From NCBI GenBank assembly GCA_963820825.1, contig CAWGBN010000005.1, positions 171,566 through 235,565 of the forward strand: DNA of 64,000 nt, read 5' to 3'. Numbering within the stretch: position 1 is the stretch's first letter; each line of letters begins with the position of its first letter. This stretch comes from Vulcanimicrobiota bacterium (GTDB lineage Bacteria > Vulcanimicrobiota > Vulcanimicrobiia > Vulcanimicrobiales > Vulcanimicrobiaceae). The position numbers were made by a program, and so were the translations under genes. The notes below the pieces were generated by a model. That model did no database searches. It was given only the letters and a program-made list of their open reading frames with translations, and was not told the DNA's origin. Shown one piece after another: positions 55,177 through 63,024 of the stretch.

Positions 55177-56394
55177 ATGAAGGTCCAAGCCCACGCGACT
55201 GTCATTGCGGTTTTTTCGCTTTCATTCTTTTCCGGCTGTTCGGATGCACCGCAATCCGCGACGCCGGCGTCGATGGGGTTGCCGAGCATCTCATCGTCGC
55301 ACTTCGGTACCGGGACTGGACGGTTTTCGAAGTCGGGCCTCTCTTCGGAGACCGTGCTCTACAGCTTCGCGAATTCTCCGACTGACGGTGCGAACCCATT
55401 TGCCCCTCTGCTCAACGTAAACGGAACCTTGTACGGCACCACAATTTCTGGCGGTGCGAGCAATAACGGCACGGTTTTTAAGATCTCGACCTCCGGCGCG
55501 GAACAGGTGCTCTATAGCTTCGCGGGCGGCGCCGACGGCGCCAATCCGTATAGCGGTCTCGTAAAAGTTGGCAACAAGCTCTACGGCACGACTGCGTTCG
55601 GCGGGACAAATAACAACGGTACGGTGTACTCGCTAACGACCGGCGGCGTGGAGAAGGTTCTCTACCGATTCACAGGCTCTCCGGATGGTGCAATCCCCTA
55701 TGCTACGTTGACGAATGTCAACGGAACGTTGTACGGCACGACCGATCATGGTGGAGCTGACGAATATGGGGAGATTTTTAGTATCACAACCTCCGGTACG
55801 TATAGCCCGCTCCACAGCTTCGTCGGTGCTCCGGCGGATGGCGCACATCCCTATGCCGCGCTTACGAATGTTGGCGGCACGTTGTACGGTGCGACGACCG
55901 TCGGTGGGTCGAGTGATATGGGCACGATCTTCACCGCTACGACCAGCGGGTCTGAAAACGTGTTCTATAGCTTTTTGGGTGGACACGACGGTGCCAATCC
56001 GTACGGCGGCCTCGTAAAAGTGGGCAACAAGCTGTACGGTACGACAACCCAGGGCGGCAAAGATGACGGAACTGTTTTTAAGATCATTATAACGTCGGGT
56101 ATCGAAAAGGTACTCTACCGATTTACTGGAAGTGCCGATGGCGCGCATCCTTATGCCGGCCTTGCGTACGTCAACGGAACGCTTTACGGCACGACCCAGC
56201 AGCAGGGTGTCGGCGGCAACGGAACGATTTTCGGTATTACCTCCTCCCGCATTTACAGCAAGCTCTATGACTTTGGCCCTTCGCCCGATGGCTCGACTCC
56301 GTACGCGACTCTGCTAAACGTGAACGGTACTTTCTACGGCACGGCGTTTGCCGGCGGCGCCGGCAGCGGTGTCGTCTATACATTTTCGCCATAG
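55177..56394 (+). CDS. TIGR03803-type (GloVer) tandem-repeat lipoprotein
   Basis: About seven repeats of VLYSF.G..DGA.P...L.NV.G.LYGTT..GG...GTVF; lipobox FSGC. Confidence 0.85.
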   Translation: MKVQAHATVIAVFSLSFFSGCSDAPQSATPASMGLPSISSSHFGTGTGRFSKSGLSSETVLYSFANSPTDGANPFAPLLNVNGTLYGTTISGGASNNGTVFKISTSGAEQVLYSFAGGADGANPYSGLVKVGNKLYGTTAFGGTNNNGTVYSLTTGGVEKVLYRFTGSPDGAIPYATLTNVNGTLYGTTDHGGADEYGEIFSITTSGTYSPLHSFVGAPADGAHPYAALTNVGGTLYGATTVGGSSDMGTIFTATTSGSENVFYSFLGGHDGANPYGGLVKVGNKLYGTTTQGGKDDGTVFKIIITSGIEKVLYRFTGSADGAHPYAGLAYVNGTLYGTTQQQGVGGNGTIFGITSSRIYSKLYDFGPSPDGSTPYATLLNVNGTFYGTAFAGGAGSGVVYTFSP

Positions 56395-56852
56395 TCTCAG
56401 CACAGCGAAAGGAACGCCGGATGCGACTATTTCATCCGAACCGGTCCGCGTTTATTATTTGCGCGACCGTAATGATGTTGCCGGCCTGCGGATCGCTGGG
56501 ATCGGCAGGAACGCAGTTGCCCAACGGACCCCAAACGCCCGATGGCATACATCCAGGTACCTATAGCTACCGCATCGTCCATAAATTCATCCTCCGGACG
56601 GGGGCCCTTCCCTACGGCGCGCCGATCAACGTAAACGGCACGCTCTACGGTACAACCTCTGCCGGAGGTAAGTACGAAGGGGGAACTGTTTACAGCTTCA
56701 GCCCTATTACCGGCAAAGCAACGACGTTGCATAACTTTGGAAAGGGCAACGATGGGTCGGTCCCAGAGGTGGCCTCGGTTAGCTGAACACCCCGTTGTGT
56801 GATGACTTCGCTCTCTGCGGGTCGAAGGGACCAGCGAAAAGGAGCAGTCATC

Positions 56853-57152
56853 GTGAGTCGTTCTCGTCGTAACCACACGCCGGCCTTCAAAGCCAAGGTG
56901 GCGTTAGCGGCAATCAAGGGAGATCAAACCGTCGCGGAGCTCGCCAAGCGCTTCGACGTCCACCCGAACTCGATCGTTCAATGGAAAACGCAACTGCTCG
57001 AGAGAGCAGCTGAAGCCTTTGGCGGCGAGAGTCCCAAGCAAAGCGGTCCTGATGTTCGGGATTTACATGCCAAGATCGGCCAGCTGGCGCTGGAGAATGA
57101 TTTTTTAGAACGCGCGCTCGGGCGTATCGACGGGTCGAGCGCAAGGCGATGA
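56853..57152 (+). CDS. IS3 transposase OrfA
   Basis: RRNHTPAFKAKVAL..ELAKRFDVHPN..WK..LHAKIGQL.LENDFL; T6 slippery tract near 57100. Confidence 0.9.
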   Translation: MSRSRRNHTPAFKAKVALAAIKGDQTVAELAKRFDVHPNSIVQWKTQLLERAAEAFGGESPKQSGPDVRDLHAKIGQLALENDFLERALGRIDGSSARR

Positions 57153-57974
57153 TCATTCGCGGCCATGCTTTGCCACTATCACGTCAAGCCGACGTGCTCA
57201 ACCCTTTCGCGCGGCAGCTTATATTACAAAGCCGTCCCGGTCTCCGATGCGGATCTTGACCTGATGCGTGAAATCGACGTGTTGCACACCGATCGGCCGT
57301 TTTGCGGGGCTCGGATGTTGCGCGACATTCTCCGGCGTAAAGGCTATGAGATTGGCCGCCGGCACGTTGGCCGGCTGATGCGCCTAATGGGCATCGAAGC
57401 GCTGTACCGCAAGAAGAAAGGCACAAAGACGAATCCCGCGCACCCGATCTATCCCTATCTTCTGAGAAATCTCGTCATCGACCGCCCGGATCAAGTCTGG
57501 TGCGCCGATATTTCGTACATCCCAATGCGGCGCGGCTTTCTCTACCTCTTCGCAATCTTGGACTGGCGAACACGGCGAGTGCTGACGTGGCGGCTTTCGA
57601 ACAGCCTCACGGCTGACTTCTGCATGGATGCGGTCGAAGCGGCGGTCGCGACGTATGGTTGCCCGGAGATCTTCAATACCGATCAAGGCTGCCAGTTTAC
57701 GGCGCTGGCGTTCGTCGAGATGCTCAAAAACTATGGAATCGCCATCAGCATGGACGGCCGCGGCGCCTGGCGGGACAACGTTTTTGTCGAGCGGTTTTGG
57801 CGTTCGCTGAAGTACGAGGAAGTCTATTTGCGCGCCTATGAGACCGCCAGCGAAGCCAAGCACTTCATCGGGCGCTACGTTTCATTCTACAACGCGGACC
57901 GGCCGCACTCGGCCCTCGACGGGCAAACCCCGGACGAGGTATACTTCAATAGGTCGACCGAAAGGGCGGCGTAA
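57149..57974 (+). CDS. IS3 transposase OrfB (DDE; one extra base near 57200)
   Basis: WCADISY, NTDQGCQF, DNVFVERFWRSLKYE, YN..RPHS. Confidence 0.92.
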
Positions 57975-58908
57975 CTAGCGTGGTCATCACACAGCGAAGG
58001 CCGGTACACTGTTCAAAAAACCGGCGCCACCTCTCCCGTACGGCGACCTCGTAAACGTGAACGGCACGCTTTACGGTACGACAGAAATCGGCGGCCGCTT
58101 CAGTGAGGGAACCGTATTTAGCATTACACCGAGCGGCAGCGAGAGTCTGGTATGGAGCTTTGGAAGGGGCCATCGGAGCGGCTATGACCCCGTAACAGGG
58201 TTGATCACAATCGGCAACACTCTCTACGGGACGACGGTATTGGGTGGCAAGTATGGTTCGGGAACGATCTACACCGTAGAAGCCGGCGTTGGCGAAAGCC
58301 CAGCCGTAACGCTGTACAGTTTCGGCGCCAATCCTTACGATGGAGCTAATGCCAACAAATTAATGGAGGCATCCGGGCAAATTTACGGTACAACGGTGTC
58401 GCCCGGGACCGTATTTGTCATAAATCCGGACGGATCCCGCTATCGCAATCTCTACAGATTCGGAACCCAAGGCCCGTATGATGCCGCCCTCCCGCAAGGA
58501 AGCCTAACACTGATCGACGGCTGGTTCTACGGCGTCTCGTCTGGAGGCGGCAAATACGACGACGGTACCGTTTTTAAGGTTTCGTCAGATGGCGCCGAGC
58601 AAGTACTGCATAGCTTCAACTACGACGATGGTCGTAGCCCGGAAGTCCAGCTGGTTAACAACGACGGAGCGCTGATTGGAGTGACCTCTGACGGCGGTGC
58701 ATTTCCGCGCGAAGGAGGAACCGTCTTTAGTATCAGCACGTCGGGAGACTTGCAGACCTTACATAGCTTCGGCCACGGCAGAGACGGCTGGTCTCCAAAG
58801 TCGGCGGTGCTAAATGTCAATGGCGTGCTGTATGGAACGACTATTTACGGGGGAAGAATCCCAGACCAAGACGGCGTCATCTACGCGCTGACACCCTAAA
58901 CACTGTTT

Positions 58909-59104: not shown

Positions 59105-60228
59105 TCAGCCCGAGCGCTTCTGGACCGCCGCGTGTCTGGCCTGGGCTAGGGCTAGTGCGTCGCCGACCCGGTCGATCATGGCGCTCTTCGCTCCGGCTAC
59201 GACGTGGCCATAGACGTTGAGAGTTGTGGACGCCTGCCCGTGGCCTATGACCGCCGAAACAGTATTCACGTCGCTCCCTTCAGCGAGGGCTGATGTAGCC
59301 ATGAAATGGCGGCACGAATGTAGGGTCGCTCCCTTGATTTCCGCGAGGCGCACCAGCTTCGCGAATGCCTTCGAGAGGCCATCGAGATCCGGCGGACCAC
59401 CGGCCTTATCAGCAAACACGAAATTTCTATCCTCGTAAGCGCCGTGCTCTGCGTGCAGGTTTTCAGCAGCTTGCTTTGCCCGCAACGCCCTCAGCGCTTC
59501 AACGGCTGCCGCTGACAGCGGAACGACTCGTTCACGTCCGGTTTTCGTAGTCTTCAAGAAGAACCCGCCGCGTCGATCTTCGCCAAAGGCTTGCCGCACG
59601 AAGATGCACCGATTTCGGAAGTCAACGGAATCCCATTGGAGCGCGGCCAGTTCGGCACGCCGACAACCAGTTGACAGAGCGATGAGAAGAAATGTCTCGT
59701 AGCCTGATCCTTCTGCTAGAGCGAGCAGCGTAGCCGCTTCATCGGCGGTCAGTGCCCGTGCTCTTGACGGGTTTGGACGTGGCGCTTCGATAAGGTTGGC
59801 AACGTTACGCCCTACTAGCGACATCCGCTCCGCCCATCGAAGCATTCGATGAATAAAACGATGCACCCGAACAAGGCTTGTCCCGCCCAACGGCTTACCG
59901 ATTCGTTTCTTTTTGCGATCTTCGCCAGAGGATAATTTACGAGTGTAGACGACAGGCTGGGAGCCTAGCTTAGCTAACAACTCTGCAATGTGAGCAGGTT
60001 TAAGTTTGGAGACGACGATTCCGCCCAACGCTGGCTCGACGTGATGCTTCCAGTGCTCTTCATATCGCGCATAGGTTGCAGGAGCAAGTCGGCTTTTCAC
60101 GTCTTGAAAGAACTTGTCTGCAACTTGCGAGAGCGTGAGTGTCTGAGTAGGAAGGTCGAAGCCCTGGTCGCGTGCTTGGAGCGCGTCCCGCTCCGCTTTT
60201 TGAGCTAGTTCCTTGGTGTCAAAGGGTT
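59105..60228 (-). pseudogene. Phage/ICE tyrosine integrase lacking its N-terminus (cut by an IS3 element)
   Basis: TGCRRAEL, KTTKT, LHSCRH, IGH, LNVY catalytic set. The ORF start in the track lies within the IS. Confidence 0.88.
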
Positions 60229-60240
60229 TGAGCCCATTTC

Positions 60241-60540
60241 TTAGTCCACCGGCGATTGTGGGATTGGTGTAGAAAAGTTTTCGACGAACTCCTTGGGCGT
60301 AAGATAGTTTAGCGACGAGTGCGGCCGAACCTCGTTGTAATCCACGAGCCATGCATCGGCCTCTTCGCGGATCTGCAGGAGAGTCCTGAAGACTTGCACG
60401 TTGAGGAACTCGTCGCGCACGCGAGCGTTGAAGGACTCGATCCAGGCGTTCTGTGCGGGTTTCCCGGGATCAATGAAGTGCAGCAGAACATTGTGATCGA
60501 TCGACCACTGCAGCATCGCGCCGGCGACGTTTTCCGGACC
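60241..60540 (-). pseudogene. 3' fragment of IS3 OrfB
   Basis: GPE...FIDPGKPAQNAWIESFNARVRDEFLN..YNEVRPHSSL. Confidence 0.9.
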
Positions 60541-60620
60541 GTGATACATACAAGACGGGGCGCTGCCCCCATGGCGAACGGAGGTGTATCTGACTCATCT
60601 CCGCTGGAGGCAACGACCCT

Positions 60621-61883
60621 ATGGCAAAGTTCCGTGCTGCTCCAACGGCGCCCGCCTGGCTCGCAATCGACGTCGCCAAAAACCGACACGTGGCGCTGCT
60701 GGAGGACGAGGCCGGCATTCGCCGGCGTTTGACAGTTCCAAACACGCAAGAAGGTTTCGACGAGTTGGCAGGGATTCTGGCGCCGCATCTTCCCTGCGAG
60801 GTCGCGCTGGAACCAACCGGAGACTATCACCGACCCCTGGCGAACTTCTTGCTCCGGCGAGGCCACCGCGTTCATTTCGTATCGTCGATCGCTACAAATC
60901 GGACGAGAGAAGCGCTGTTCAACTCGTGGGATAAAAACGATCCGAAGGATGCGCAGGTGATTCTGCATTTGCTCAAGAGCGGTACAACGCAGGTGTTCGC
61001 CGATCCACTGCAACGTGGCAACCAAGATCTTCAGGAACTGCTCGGTACCTATCGGCAGATCACCGACCGAAAGACGCGAGCCTACCATTCGCTGATGACG
61101 CACTATTTGCCGCTGTACTTCCCGGAAGCAGAGCCCTTCCTGAGCAATCCGCGCGGCGAGTGGTTCTTGGAGGTCATGCGCATAGCGCCATGCCCTTCCA
61201 CGGTCCTTCAATATACCAAAAGGACATTCGTCAAAAGGTTTACTGCAGCGGGAGGGCATTTTACATCTCGGCAAAGTCTCGTCGCCAGCTACTACGAAAT
61301 TGCCAAGGAAAGCGTGGGAATTCCAGTGGCGGCGGATTCGCAGGCCGCCCAGATGTTCCAACTCGCGATTGAGCAGTACATCGGCCTCATGAAGCTTCGA
61401 CGGCAGCTTCAGGAGCTCATTGACGCACAACTCGAGAACAACATCGATTATCAGCGCCTGCGCTCTATCCCTGGAATCGGCCCTATTGTTGCTCTAACGG
61501 TTCTCGCTGAAGGCGGAGATTTACGCCGCTTCAGCCACCATCGCAAATTTCTTAACTACTGTGGCCTTTCTTTGTCGACGATGCAATCCGGAACGTCACG
61601 CGGCCGACCGCAGCTCTCCAAACGCGGCAATGCTCGACTGCGATGGGCCTTCTGGATGGCAGCCAATGCTGCCATCAATCAGCGCCGAAACTCGTTTCGG
61701 AAAAAGTACGACGACTACGTTCGTCGCGATCCACTGGATGCCGATCTCAAAAGAAGAGCGTATGTCGCCGTAGCAGCGAAGATTGCGCGCGTCGCTTACG
61801 GCTTGATCAAATCTGGAAAAGAGTACCGCCACTATTTCGAAGCGGCGGTGCACGACGGGAGAATCCCTTCGCTGGGCCGTTGA
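60621..61883 (+). CDS. IS110-family DEDD recombinase/transposase
   Basis: AIDVAK, ALEPTG, KNDPKDA, SIPGIG, QSG catalytic-serine region, SKRGNARLR. GGAGG RBS. Confidence 0.95.
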   Translation: MAKFRAAPTAPAWLAIDVAKNRHVALLEDEAGIRRRLTVPNTQEGFDELAGILAPHLPCEVALEPTGDYHRPLANFLLRRGHRVHFVSSIATNRTREALFNSWDKNDPKDAQVILHLLKSGTTQVFADPLQRGNQDLQELLGTYRQITDRKTRAYHSLMTHYLPLYFPEAEPFLSNPRGEWFLEVMRIAPCPSTVLQYTKRTFVKRFTAAGGHFTSRQSLVASYYEIAKESVGIPVAADSQAAQMFQLAIEQYIGLMKLRRQLQELIDAQLENNIDYQRLRSIPGIGPIVALTVLAEGGDLRRFSHHRKFLNYCGLSLSTMQSGTSRGRPQLSKRGNARLRWAFWMAANAAINQRRNSFRKKYDDYVRRDPLDADLKRRAYVAVAAKIARVAYGLIKSGKEYRHYFEAAVHDGRIPSLGR

Positions 61884-62004
61884 GGCGACTACGACCTCGT
61901 AGATAATGCTCGGATCTCCCGATGGCAGCAAACTCCGTTTTGAGCTCGGTGAAGGCTCGTTTCCGAGACCTTGTGTCATCATGGTTGGAGCTATTGCGTC
62001 GTCG
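61857..62004 (+). ncRNA. Predicted bridge (seek) RNA with target-binding and donor-binding loops
   Basis: Two stem/internal-loop/hairpin modules (61857-61920, 61920-62004). Loop segments match both sides of the target and both sides of the donor junction. Confidence 0.8.
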
Positions 62005-62095
62005 AGGGGCATCTCGGCAAGGGTGTGCAAGCTCGGCTTTGCTGTCGACGGGCATCGTTATGCCTACTAGTGGGGTTGACTTTCGTACTTAGCTC

Positions 62096-62650
62096 GTTAT
62101 CAACGCGAAGGCGCGTGGGATAACCGCGGATCTGGGCGATGTCATCGAGCGTTCGAATTACGCGGCGGCTGGTGATCGAAAAGTCTGGGTCGACCGCGAG
62201 ACCTTCGCGGCTGAAGCGGTCCTCGATCGTCAGCAACCGCACTTTGCGCTTGGTCATGAGGATTTCGTGCATGAAATCCAGTCCCCATTCTTCATTGAGC
62301 TTTGTCGGAGCCGGTGAAACGTTGCCGCGCACCAATCGCACGCGTCGCTTCTTGCGCGGTCGCACCTGCAATCGCTCATCGCAATACAGGCGGCGCAGGC
62401 GTTTGTGGTTCATCACGAGGCCTTCACGCTTGAGCAGGATCTTAAGCCGGCGCCATCCGAATCTCGGCCGCTCTTGCGCAATGCAACGCAACCGATCGCG
62501 GACGTGCTCGTCGCCGGGGCGTTTGCGTGGTTTGTATCGTACGGTCGGTCGGGGGCAGGTCGCGAGGCGGCACGCTTGCCGCTGGCTGATCCCCTCGGCC
62601 TCTAACGCCCTCACCGCTTCCTTGCGCGCTGAGGGCCCCACCCGTTTTTT
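62096..62650 (-). pseudogene. 5' fragment of IS3 OrfB
   Basis: ISQRQACRL, RPRFGWRRL, WGLDFM, GYPTRLRVDN, breaking exactly at the IS110 end. Confidence 0.9.
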
Positions 62651-62906
62651 CGAATCACCTCGGACATCGCGCGGATCTCGAGGGCTTGACGCGCGATGAT
62701 GCGCTCCATCTGCGAGTTTTCGGATTCGAGCTCTTTCAGACAGGTGAGATCGCTGATGTCGAGCCCGGCGTATTTGCTTCGCCACAGTCGCAGCGTGTTG
62801 ACGTGAACGCCGTGTTTGCGAGCGAGCTCAGCTGCGGATCGGCCGGCGTCGAGCTCTTGAAGGATCGCGACGATTTGCGCTTCGGTGTAGCGCTTCGCTT
62901 GCGCAT
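62611..62906 (-). CDS. IS3 (IS407-like) OrfA (small indel near start)
   Basis: KRYTEAQIVAIL..ELARKHGV..WRSKYAGL..LKELESEN. Confidence 0.88.
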
Positions 62907-63024
62907 GCGGGTCTCCTTTGCAGGCCATCTTGGCCGGAAAACCACAATTCCCATTGGACTAGATTCCGGGGCTCAAACCCAAGGGGCACTTCCTGCAGCT
63001 CTGGTATCATAAAGTAGAGCACTA

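Follow-up and report, generated by a model that had tools for sequence, protein, structure and literature searches.

The locus described here raises the question of whether a guide RNA that recognises a protein-coding motif can be written so as to read its synonymous variants. It lies in a stretch of 64,000 nucleotides (hereafter the window) of contig CAWGBN010000005.1 from a Vulcanimicrobiota bacterium, where an insertion sequence interrupts an IS3-family transposase gene and every departure from Watson–Crick pairing between its guide and the target faces a third codon base. The initial annotation took these wobbles as a device by which one guide recognises synonymous forms of a conserved transposase motif. 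Our analysis makes it likely that the region is the target-binding loop of a predicted bridge (seek) RNA of an IS110-family insertion sequence (Table 1), that the element belongs to a clade homing to the codons D-N^G (the caret marks the point of insertion), and that the wobbles differ in origin.

Table 1. Features of the element, its predicted guide RNA and the interrupted gene, in window coordinates.
Feature	Position	Strand	Basis
IS110-family insertion sequence, 1553 bp without core	60543..62095	+	four genome matches at 99-100% identity; ends from flanks
Left end, 78 bp; first 3 bases GAT read by the right donor guide	60543..60620	+	
Transposase/recombinase, 420 aa, DEDD RuvC-like domain and Tnp domain	60621..61883	+	
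3' part of split IS3-family orfB, begins G-P-E-N-V	60241..60540	-	ORF 60241-60549: Pfam rve_3, rve_2
5' part of split IS3-family orfB, ends R-L-R-V-D-N	62096..62785	-	Pfam HTH_21, rve
IS3-family orfA (HTH_Tnp_1)	62611..62928	-	Pfam PF01527, E 1.6e-18
Left core copy GT	60541..60542	+	GT at both junctions in 4/4 genome copies; one GT in empty sites
Right core copy GT and right target TATC	62096..62101	+	read directly
Left target (LT) CCGGACC, positions -7 to -1	60534..60540	+	pairs with 61872-61878: 5 Watson-Crick and 2 G·U
Target-binding loop, starts within the 3' end of the transposase ORF	61857..61920	+	layout kept in 56 aligned relatives
Left target guide CUGGGCC and core GU; U61873 and G61876 are wobble positions	61872..61880	+	
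Hairpin between the two target guides	61882..61898	+	alignment pairs 30-36/54-61
Right target guide GAUAAU	61902..61907	+	GAUAAU in 106/108 loci
Donor-binding loop	61927..61999	+	guide/end covariation, compensatory changes
Left donor guide AGCUC	61943-61947	+	
Donor-loop hairpin	61952-61972	+	compensatory changes, outer stem likewise
Right donor guide AUCAU	61978-61982	+	

The transposase places the element in the IS110 family, with matches to PF01548 (7.6e-21) and PF02371 (8.8e-28) and a score of 221 bits against the NCBIfam NF033542 cut-off of 140; in keeping with that family, the element has two recombinase domains, inserts site-specifically without terminal inverted repeats (local alignment of its ends found none) and carries a predicted two-loop guide RNA. 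Residues D17, E64, D107 and D110 and the pair S323-G324, which we take to be catalytic, are invariant among 37 homologues, and the transposases of relatives are 409-442 aa long. The layout, with a short left end, a long right end of 212 bp and the loops (61857-61999) downstream of the transposase gene, is that of the IS1111 group (ISPa11, IS4321, ISKpn4). The target differs, however, and the sub-terminal inverted repeats of 7-17 bp typical of that group are lacking in the window element: comparison of its first 60 bp with the reverse complement of its last 60 bp yielded no more than an imperfect 8-mer remote from the termini, and four relatives were similar. The transposase is also longer than the 330-350 aa or so given for IS1111-type enzymes in the available part of PMC11187229.

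The insertion point can be read directly from the flanks. The left flank ends in TTTTCCGGACC (60530-60540) and is followed by the core GT (60541-2) and the element start, GATACAT, at 60543; the element terminates in TTAGCTC at 62095, and the second GT (62096-7) is followed by TATCAACG. Across the junctions the minus strand reads CGC GTT GAT AAC ^ GGT CCG GAA (R V D N ^ G P E), so that the element lies antisense in an IS3-family orfB, between GAT AAC and GGT CCG, and breaks the rve/IS3 reading frame into 61991-62785 and 60241-60549 (Pfam rve, rve_3, HTH_21). In the 5' part the rve match stops at profile position 75 of 102 and the NCBIfam IS3 match at 283 of 369. The same IS3 also occurs twice elsewhere in the genome without an insert, encoding RVDNGPENV with AC/GT present once, which fixes the exact point of insertion and excludes any duplication beyond the core; the three empty sites found in the genome have a single GT each. 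Insertion in the region of the second catalytic Asp of IS3, as the initial annotation had it, is thus borne out, as is its internal control, namely that the other IS3 in the window (57165-57974) is uninterrupted and encodes a different motif (ACC GAT CAA GGC TGC CAG, T D Q G C Q, at 57678-57695).

The predicted RNA has two loops, whose anatomy is visible in an alignment of 56 sequences with compensatory changes in 19 of the 21 predicted pairs. The inner hairpin of the target-binding loop shows changes on both sides in 1 to 14 sequences for each pair, and the outer stem of this loop was identified by eye alone. In 35 relatives, the left donor guide and the right end of the element, and likewise the right donor guide and the left end, are mostly Watson–Crick paired and covary. 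A single-sequence fold of 61840-62095 was no better than shuffled sequences (z = -1.0), and an Rfam scan of 60000-62600 at E up to 1 returned no match. The entire 3' side of the target-binding loop, GUAGAUAAUG, shows little or no variation, even at bases that have no partner in the target; in the alignment the UA before the right guide and the G after it are as invariant as the guide itself, and conservation of the guide's U residues alone is therefore no proof of selection for degeneracy.

By analogy with IS621, for which such pairing has been demonstrated in print, the left guide would pair with CC-GT and a few upstream bases on the bottom (coding) strand, the right guide GAUAAU with GT-TRTC on the top strand, and the second loop in the same manner with the joined ends of the element. 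In the window the left guide (C61872 U61873 G61874 G61875 G61876 C61877 C61878 G61879 U61880) has the same sense as top-strand CCGGACC GT, with U61873·G at the third base of CCG and G61876·T at the third base of GGT, and the right guide (G61902 A U A A U61907) is antiparallel to top-strand GT TATC, with U61907·G at the third base of AAC, which is the first core base; U61904 faces the third base of the Asp codon. All other pairs are Watson–Crick. Five of the 15 pairings face third codon bases, and the chance that three random non-Watson–Crick pairs all fall on those five is 10/455 = 0.022, too lenient a null, given that coding homologues diverge chiefly at synonymous positions in any event. What the initial annotation had read from the sequence therefore stands: an IS110-family guide loop directed to the region of the second catalytic Asp of IS3, three wobbles opposite third codon bases, and the caveat that the core-facing U recurs in the donor loop, which it does in 35/35 relatives.

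The other copies in the genome suggest where two of the three wobbles come from. The four copies occupy the same motif in three different IS3 genes, as had been anticipated for synonymous motif variants; synonymous variants among the occupied sites read GAT AAC GGC CCA G and GAC AAC GGC CCA G. At the GGC CCA G sites (copies L002 and L003) the left guide CUGGGCC is matched at 7/7 positions, as it is at an empty IS3 site on contig C8. Since the guide fits another IS3 subfamily in the genome perfectly, U61873 and G61876 are probably wobbles only through the residence of this copy in a non-cognate subfamily; homologous coding motifs differ at synonymous sites, and in relatives the distal positions accept any mismatch. 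In its own genome, the 7-mer is compatible (Watson–Crick or G·U) with 4/4 occupied sites and with only 6/214 empty CCRTTRTC sites, an enrichment confounded by the purging expected of insertions in host genes. A search at the level of the order found the element in only 4/201 genomes, the source genome included, so that close kin add few sites.

Homologues at 45-78% transposase identity, in records naming seven phyla, widen the range of sites considerably. Insertion at D-N^G is seen in at least 145 of the 160 loci fetched (at least one junction motif, strict pattern) and in four more with a looser pattern, the loci being related and hence not independent. Among 78 unique N-terminal target parts the best NCBIfam match is IS3 in 70, IS481 in four, IS30 in two and none in two, and rve matches stop at profile position 74-75 of 102. 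The clade thus appears to be widespread and to insert antisense, duplicating nothing but a GT core, at these codons of rve-type DDE transposase genes, mostly of the IS3 family, where insertion splits the catalytic domain. It includes the ISRel25 family (a RefSeq name; Rhizobium plasmid NZ_CP125649.1), for which we found no paper in the literature searched. ISRel25 has 47% transposase identity, the same loop layout and the same right guide, with a left guide ending in CAGUGCC GU, and sits at MIVSDN^GTELTS of an IS3-like orfB; it differs from the window element in host, in IS3 subgroup and in a distal left guide tuned to GGC ACC.

Two further known systems are close. Siddiquee et al. (2024; PMC11187229) describe ISEc21 as targeting the IS3 D codon, as the initial annotation stated, and report it from six different members of the IS3 family; the window element shares with it a target at the second catalytic Asp codon of IS3 transposases. 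In contrast, its 358-aa transposase is only distantly similar (BLASTP, 23% identity over 113 residues, E = 0.1), its non-coding region, the seekRNA, lies upstream rather than downstream of the transposase gene, and in the E. coli record it is inserted in the sense orientation at FHSD^(R)GSQYT (AGC GAC AG ^ G GGA AGC), whereas the window clade inserts antisense at GAY AAC ^ GGN; DNA motif, core and IS3 subgroup all differ. With IS621, as far as the available parts of PMC11208160 and PMC11208158 describe it, the window element shares two internal loops, in each of which a 5' guide reads the bottom strand and a 3' guide the top strand, and a 2-nt core; the same sources report that IS621 allows hardly any departure from T at the second core base and more at the first, both GT and AT cores being functional (Durrant et al., 2024; Hiraizumi et al., 2024). 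Unlike IS621, which has its RNA in the left end, a CT core and a G opposite the first core C, the window element has its RNA in the right end, where it overlaps the last part of the ORF, a GT core and 3' guides with a U opposite the first core base (G·U); an additional base apparently precedes the core in its left donor guide, and transposase similarity to IS621 chains is recognisable only in the C-terminal domain (E 4e-19).

How far, then, is the guide adapted to the degeneracy of its target? It is rather improbable that all the wobble-capable bases at third positions (U61873, G61876, G61879, U61904 and U61907) are under selection for synonyms of D-N-G-P. All five are G or U, for which chance would give 1/32; G61879 and U61907, the left and right guide bases at the first core position, could each read both AAC and AAT; at position -3 (the third base of Gly) the guide keeps G in 76/78 unique guide/site pairs even though the sites show all four bases; and position -6 (the third base of the next codon) is compatible, with Y in the top strand, in 10/10 loci that share the guide 7-mer. 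But the same 78 pairs comprise 40 Watson–Crick, 11 G·U and 27 other mismatches at -3, and 26, seven and 45, respectively, at -6; three of the ten same-guide loci have a non-wobble mismatch at -3; a U at -6 is no more compatible than other bases (9/13 vs 36/65, p = 0.27, all guides); the guide bases at -6 and -7 vary freely among relatives; and the core-facing U is just as constant in the donor loop, which reads no codon. In place of the predicted consensus GGY CCR the sites show GAY AAY GGN NNN, and tolerance is not confined to transitions at either left-guide position. The idea of one guide reading synonyms through wobble finds some support in the right guide, which is GAUAAU, with a U opposite the third bases of both GAY and AAY, in 106/108 loci, and none at the two left-guide positions. 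Left-guide/site covariation is weak overall (239 vs 219.4 +/- 6.7 in shuffles, reached by 15/5000; Fisher p 0.02 at -4, not significant at -5), and numerous copies occupy sites to which their own guide is imperfectly matched, which reflects either low fidelity, or guides acting in trans, or guides homogenised after insertion.

The opposite possibility, that the U residues of GAUAAU and of the donor guide are fixed by RNA structure or protein contacts, with G·U tolerated as the mismatch that does least damage and third-position wobbles a by-product of a conserved coding target, we regard as unlikely. The near-invariance of non-pairing bases around the right guide and the universal U·G at the first core base in the donor loop speak for it, and tolerance of wobbles by bridge-RNA guides has been reported for ISPpu10 and IS621; in the part of that preprint available, mutagenesis of the ISPpu10 guide is described as tolerating G·U where other mismatches are not accepted, and all substitutions at distal left-guide positions (bioRxiv 10.64898/2026.03.19.712850). 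The ISPpu10 target is, however, an intergenic REP-like sequence with no codon logic, whereas that of the window element is a coding motif. Moreover, the positions in question are not frozen by structure, since 61904 is C in L120 and L216, both on GAC, and the core base of the left guide is A in L036, L054 and L217, with an AT left junction in the two that are visible. The right guide is GAUAAU in 106/108 loci, GACAAU in one and GAUCAU in one, counts obtained with loop-finding patterns that presupposed GAYAAU, the GAUCAU exception (L122) being found only outside the pattern. Against this constancy, the right targets of 86 sites are TGTC in 70, TATC in 15 and TGTT in one; G is thus present at 81% of sites (70/86), where C would pair better than the U that the guide retains. 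That a copied IS3 would account for the distribution, the IS3 transposase acting in trans on an element-carrying IS3 in place of repeated homing, is very unlikely. L001 and L004 do lie in the same IS3 type at two loci with flanks 98.7% identical, and in a Granulicella MAG an identical flank and element occur at two places (L177, L178); but copying leaves unexplained the three different IS3 genes of this genome (N-terminal parts 41-45% identical to that of the interrupted IS3 in the window), the IS481 and IS30 targets, and an antisense orientation and exact position that stay the same from locus to locus.

The reading we prefer is therefore one of wobbles of differing origin. Whereas U61873 and G61876 probably reflect a non-cognate host, U61907·G has its counterpart in the donor loop and is a fixed feature of the first core position throughout the clade, which makes it no evidence of codon adaptation. 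Codon-degenerate reading looks to be built in at U61904 alone, a position that the initial annotation did not mention: it is Watson–Crick paired in the window (GAT) and forms U·G at most natural sites (GAC). We lean slightly towards the view that it is kept because it reads both Asp codons.

A more ambitious and only tentative reading sees this multi-phylum clade, with its 3' bridge RNA, as a transposon parasite. The near-invariant GAUAAU would then be aimed at GAY AAY GG, common to IS3, IS481 and IS30 transposases, and the guide U residues, with the G at the left-guide core, would be kept for both codons of Asp and of Asn; the donor-loop U would let a GT-core donor recombine with an AT-core target; and ISEc21 would use an unrelated guide to reach the same residue from the opposite strand, such homing having evolved at least twice. 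An AT left junction is present in 24/90 loci and may mark AAT targets. Empty copies of AT-junction sites, which would tell at which junction the base of the target is retained, were not found in a Granulicella MAG (6/6 flank matches examined were occupied), in five Hyphomonadaceae genomes (every junction-reaching match was occupied) or in two further MAGs (the occupied copy itself was the sole match); a plasmid collection held only homologues of a Sulfitobacter target at 84-89%, two of which are uninterrupted and read GAT AAC. By eye, the base after the left donor guide 5-mer bears no consistent relation to the left-junction base.

Targeting of the IS3 D codon is already known from ISEc21, a distant lineage, and the clade described here does so at other site DNA and in the other orientation. 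Homing of RNA-guided elements to catalytic codons in DDE transposase genes is recurrent, two unrelated IS110 lineages appearing to practise it; it silences the host element and at the same time gives the newcomer a landing pad that is safe, mobile and present in many copies. The U·G that both loops constantly form at the first core base, together with the one-sided A/G pattern at the junctions, bears on how non-identical cores are handled in strand exchange. If the U residues are kept for range, this would be a natural guide RNA composed so as to accommodate codon degeneracy, directed at a motif whose only free positions are two-fold degenerate and covered by G·U, and it would offer a design rule for bridge recombinases aimed at protein-coding motifs across diverged genes.

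The IS110-type gene is nested within a minus-strand IS3-family element, and direct reading of the window gives the junctions as ..CCGGACC GT|GATACAT.. and ..TTAGCTC|GT TATC... The coding strand at the insertion is GAT AAC|GGT CCG, so the break falls after the D-N of the motif D-N-G-P-E. The source genome (2.98 Mb, 9 contigs, 85% complete) carries four copies of the element at 99-100% identity, flanked by RLRVD|NGPENV (two loci), RIHCD|NGPEFV and AVRFD|NGPEFT; their IS3-type host genes are of three different kinds (N-terminal parts 41-45% identical to the window's), and the site DNA reads GAT AAC GGT CCG G, GAT AAC GGC CCA G or GAC AAC GGC CCA G. Empty copies exist for two of these IS3 types and have a single AC/GT at the site; thus, the insertion point is fixed and nothing is duplicated beyond the core. 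Copy L004 has decayed, with split matches and a stop; it shares with copy L002, the IS3 elements that host the two and another IS3 fragment an IS-dense patch of about 10 kb (contig C6 of the source genome, G000, 619307-629562). The second IS3-family element of the window sits between two short ORFs and, judging from sequence, may split a paralogue of the repeat-protein gene, because both flanking ORFs resemble the repeat protein.

Features of the interrupted IS3 element and its surroundings (window positions)
Feature	Position	Strand	Remarks
IS110-family recombinase, 420 aa	60621-61883	+	PF01548 and PF02371; NF033542 221 bits, cut-off 140
IS3-family orfA	62611-62928	-	host IS3 element
IS3 orfB, first part	61991-62785	-	HTH_21 and rve; rve match stops at profile position 75/102
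IS3 orfB, second part	60241-60549	-	rve_3
First loop, 5' side (left target guide)	61872-61880		CUGGGCC-GU
First loop, 3' side (right target guide)	61902-61907		GAUAAU
Second loop, 5' guide	61943-61947		AGCUC
Second loop, 3' guide	61978-61982		AUCAU
Second IS3-family element	56799-57974		
Second IS3, orfA	56799-57152		
Second IS3, orfB	57165-57974		motif DQGCQF
Short ORF beside second IS3	56421-56786		
Short ORF beside second IS3	58057-58899		
Repeat-protein gene	55177-56394		
Tyrosine recombinase gene	59105-60352	-	Phage_integrase E 4.4e-26; adjoins interrupted IS3; listed ORF overlaps final codons of IS3 orfB

A conserved two-loop layout, the predicted guide RNA, straddles the transposase stop codon. 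In an alignment of 56 non-redundant relatives, RNAalifold recovers the inner hairpins of both loops and, for the second loop, its outer stem, with changes on both sides in 19 of 21 pairs; the outer stem of the first loop was recognised by eye only, and the RNA matched no Rfam family. In the 35 relatives with both ends known, the second-loop guides track the element ends: the 5' guide pairs with the last five right-end bases, mostly by covarying Watson-Crick pairs, and the 3' guide matches the core and the first three left-end bases. The logic of donor and target loops is that of IS621, for which parts of PMC11208158 describe 5' guides reading the bottom strand and 3' guides the top strand. In two loci, L096 and L081 (..TAGCCC), the right end closes with CCC where the left donor guide of the element itself calls for CUC or UCC; the final two bases equal the target's CC, perhaps a trace left by heteroduplex repair during insertion.

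A protein search found 3329 proteins at E<=1e-40 among 8000 candidates scored. Via an alignment of 37 homologues we chose 80 genome and 80 metagenome loci (45-78% identity to the query), whose record titles name Eremiobacterota/Vulcanimicrobiota, Acidobacteriota, Pseudomonadota, Planctomycetota, Nitrospirota, Chlamydiota and Bdellovibrionota. When the two orfB halves were used in tblastn, the N-terminal half stopped, at most loci, at D-N just right of the element and the C-terminal half began at G just left of it, both antisense. A strict pattern recovered at least one D-N|G junction in 145 of the 160 loci and a looser one added 4; L076 and L092 have flank sequence and no recognisable junction. 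The loop motif is absent in nine loci, of which seven end before the region. The other two are L093, where another base precedes the guide, and L122, where the last 130 bases of a metagenome contig that ends before the right junction carry the sole right guide seen with a change at a non-wobble position (GAUCAU). A relative that RefSeq names ISRel25 family has this loop too and sits at a site of this kind.

The best NCBIfam model for 78 unique N-terminal target parts of at least 90 aa was IS3 in 70, IS481 in 4 (L091, L101, L102, L116), IS30 in 2 (L153, L169) and none in 2 (L021, L045); as the scan used parts of proteins, the IS3 bit scores lie under the cut-off for full length. Pfam rve reaches the D-N end in 5 of 6 rve-matching parts, ending at profile position 74/102. 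A minority of insertions lie at D-N|G in non-IS3 DDE families, or perhaps in non-transposase genes; what is recognised is a DNA motif, not the IS3 family as such. The short flank of L099 is sulfatase-like (E 7.5e-4, below the cut-off). In a Granulicella MAG (G201; L085-L088, L177-L182) all six IS3 copies examined with the L085 flank probe (81-100% identity, two or more IS3 types) are already occupied by an IS110-type element, leaving no empty target for that probe. In a Sagittula stellata plasmid (L215, near position 696) the C-terminal part of an IS3 extends as far as ..GTGCC GT TATC and then gives way to unrelated sequence; homology breaks 4 nt right of the core, where the stretch covered by the right target guide ends.

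In the window, the guide pairs with its own site by Watson-Crick rules save at U61873·G, G61876·T and U61907·G, each opposite a codon third base (of CCG, GGT and AAC, respectively), exactly as the initial annotation had read them. It had also proposed that these wobbles let one guide read synonymous variants of the motif, tolerance being limited to transitions. For the left guide, counted from the core GT over 78 unique guide/site pairs, positions -1 and -2 are C:C throughout and the remainder vary.

Pairing of the left target guide with its site (78 unique guide/site pairs)
Position	Watson-Crick	G·U	Other mismatch	Remarks
-3	40	11	27	Gly third base; guide G in 76/78
-4	48	4	26	
-5	61	0	17	
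-6	26	7	45	third base of next codon
-7	25	17	36	

True pairs score modestly above shuffled ones (239 against 219.4 +/- 6.7, attained by 15 of 5000 shuffles). Among ten loci with the window's 7-mer CUGGGCC, position -6 is compatible in all ten, and non-wobble mismatches occur at -3 in three and at -4 in one; tolerance at G61876 is thus not limited to transitions, and no discrimination is seen family-wide for U61873 (p = 0.27). These mismatch counts are an upper bound on infidelity, since the ISEc21 non-coding region is described in part of PMC11187229 as acting in trans, so that a copy's own guide need not have placed it, and since guide copies may be homogenised after insertion. Within the source genome, each of the 4 occupied sites is compatible at every position by Watson-Crick or G·U pairing, against only 6 of 214 empty CCRTTRTC sites, and none of 27 near-match sites (one or two deviations including a non-wobble mismatch) is occupied. 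This pattern fits wobble-specific tolerance; purging of host-gene insertions would leave the same one. The two left-guide wobbles are most simply explained if the guide has the GGC CCA G subfamily as its cognate, with perfect matches at two occupied sites plus an empty one, and the window IS3 is a homologue two synonymous transitions apart.

U61907 faces the first core base. The same U stands opposite the donor core G in 35 of 35 relatives' donor loops, which makes it, in line with the suspicion in the initial annotation, a constant of the clade's core handling. Any reading of AAT codons by U61907 hinges on the junction at which the target base is retained. Left junctions (n = 90) are GT in 63, AT in 24 and other in 3, right junctions are GT in 83 of 86, and the AT-left/GT-right combination occurs 16 times, the reverse once. 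On balance we lean slightly towards the left junction keeping the target base, in which case about a quarter of sites would be AAT. The top-strand chemistry of IS621, in which donor T9 is ligated to target A10 according to parts of the IS621 literature, suggests as much, and it fits that L036, L054 and L217 have A as the left-guide core base, with an AT left junction in both cases where it is seen. Against this, the A follows element lineage: AGCAC-type left ends are mostly AT, and in one Granulicella MAG every copy seen reads AT over at least three different IS3 flanks. Two uninterrupted homologues (84-89%) of one AT-left target read AAC, and no empty copy of any AT-left site was found in the Granulicella MAG, five Hyphomonadaceae genomes, two further MAGs and a plasmid collection. 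The A/G one-sidedness (loci L015-L174) is unlike what staggered exchange and replication of a heteroduplex would lead one to expect.

Degenerate codon reading stands best at U61904, a base that the initial annotation did not list because it is Watson-Crick in the window copy. The right guide is GAUAAU in 105 of 106 pattern-found loops, the other being GACAAU, and in 106 of 108 when L093 and L122 are included. Right targets (n = 86) are TGTC in 70, TATC in 15 and TGTT in 1, so that at 81% of natural sites U61904 stands opposite the G of Asp GAC, a base better paired by C. The position is not fixed: both GACAAU elements (L120 and the plasmid record L216) lie on GAC, each matching its own site. 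Asp and Asn both have two-fold, Y-ending codons, whose synonymous range is matched exactly by a U that pairs with top-strand R. The bases around the right guide (UA before, G after) are equally invariant among the 56 aligned relatives, so invariance by itself does not tell selection for range apart from a constraint imposed by structure or protein contacts. Codon-aligned wobble is thus partly a by-product, in the left guide, and partly a core constant, at U61907; only at U61904 is it plausibly a selected feature.

ISEc21, in the copy used in PMC11187229, where the legend of Supplementary Fig. 11 gives six IS3 members, has a 358-aa transposase that hardly aligns with that of the window (23% over 113 aa, E = 0.1). 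In ISEc21 the non-coding region precedes the transposase gene, whereas in our element it is 3', and the ISEc21 copy lies in sense orientation at ..AGC GAC AG|G GGA AGC.. (FHSD|(R)GSQYT), whereas ours is antisense. The two lineages reach the same residue of the same protein family with different DNA, strand, core and RNA position. Our element fits the IS110 family; it shares a short left end, long right end and 3' RNA with the IS1111-type arrangement, but lacks the sub-terminal inverted repeats and 330-350 aa protein that papers state for it. Wobble tolerance at bridge-RNA interfaces is reported, in parts of bioRxiv 10.64898/2026.03.19.712850, as measured for ISPpu10 and noted for IS621. Full-text literature searches (bridge RNA with wobble; IS110/IS3/DDE/seekRNA; ISRel25) found neither this clade nor codon-aligned guide degeneracy described. 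The element belongs to a kind known in principle, the RNA-guided parasites of DDE transposons; as far as we searched, the novelty lies in the clade, in the span of IS families and phyla that it reaches, and in a U-bearing right guide that is nearly invariant.
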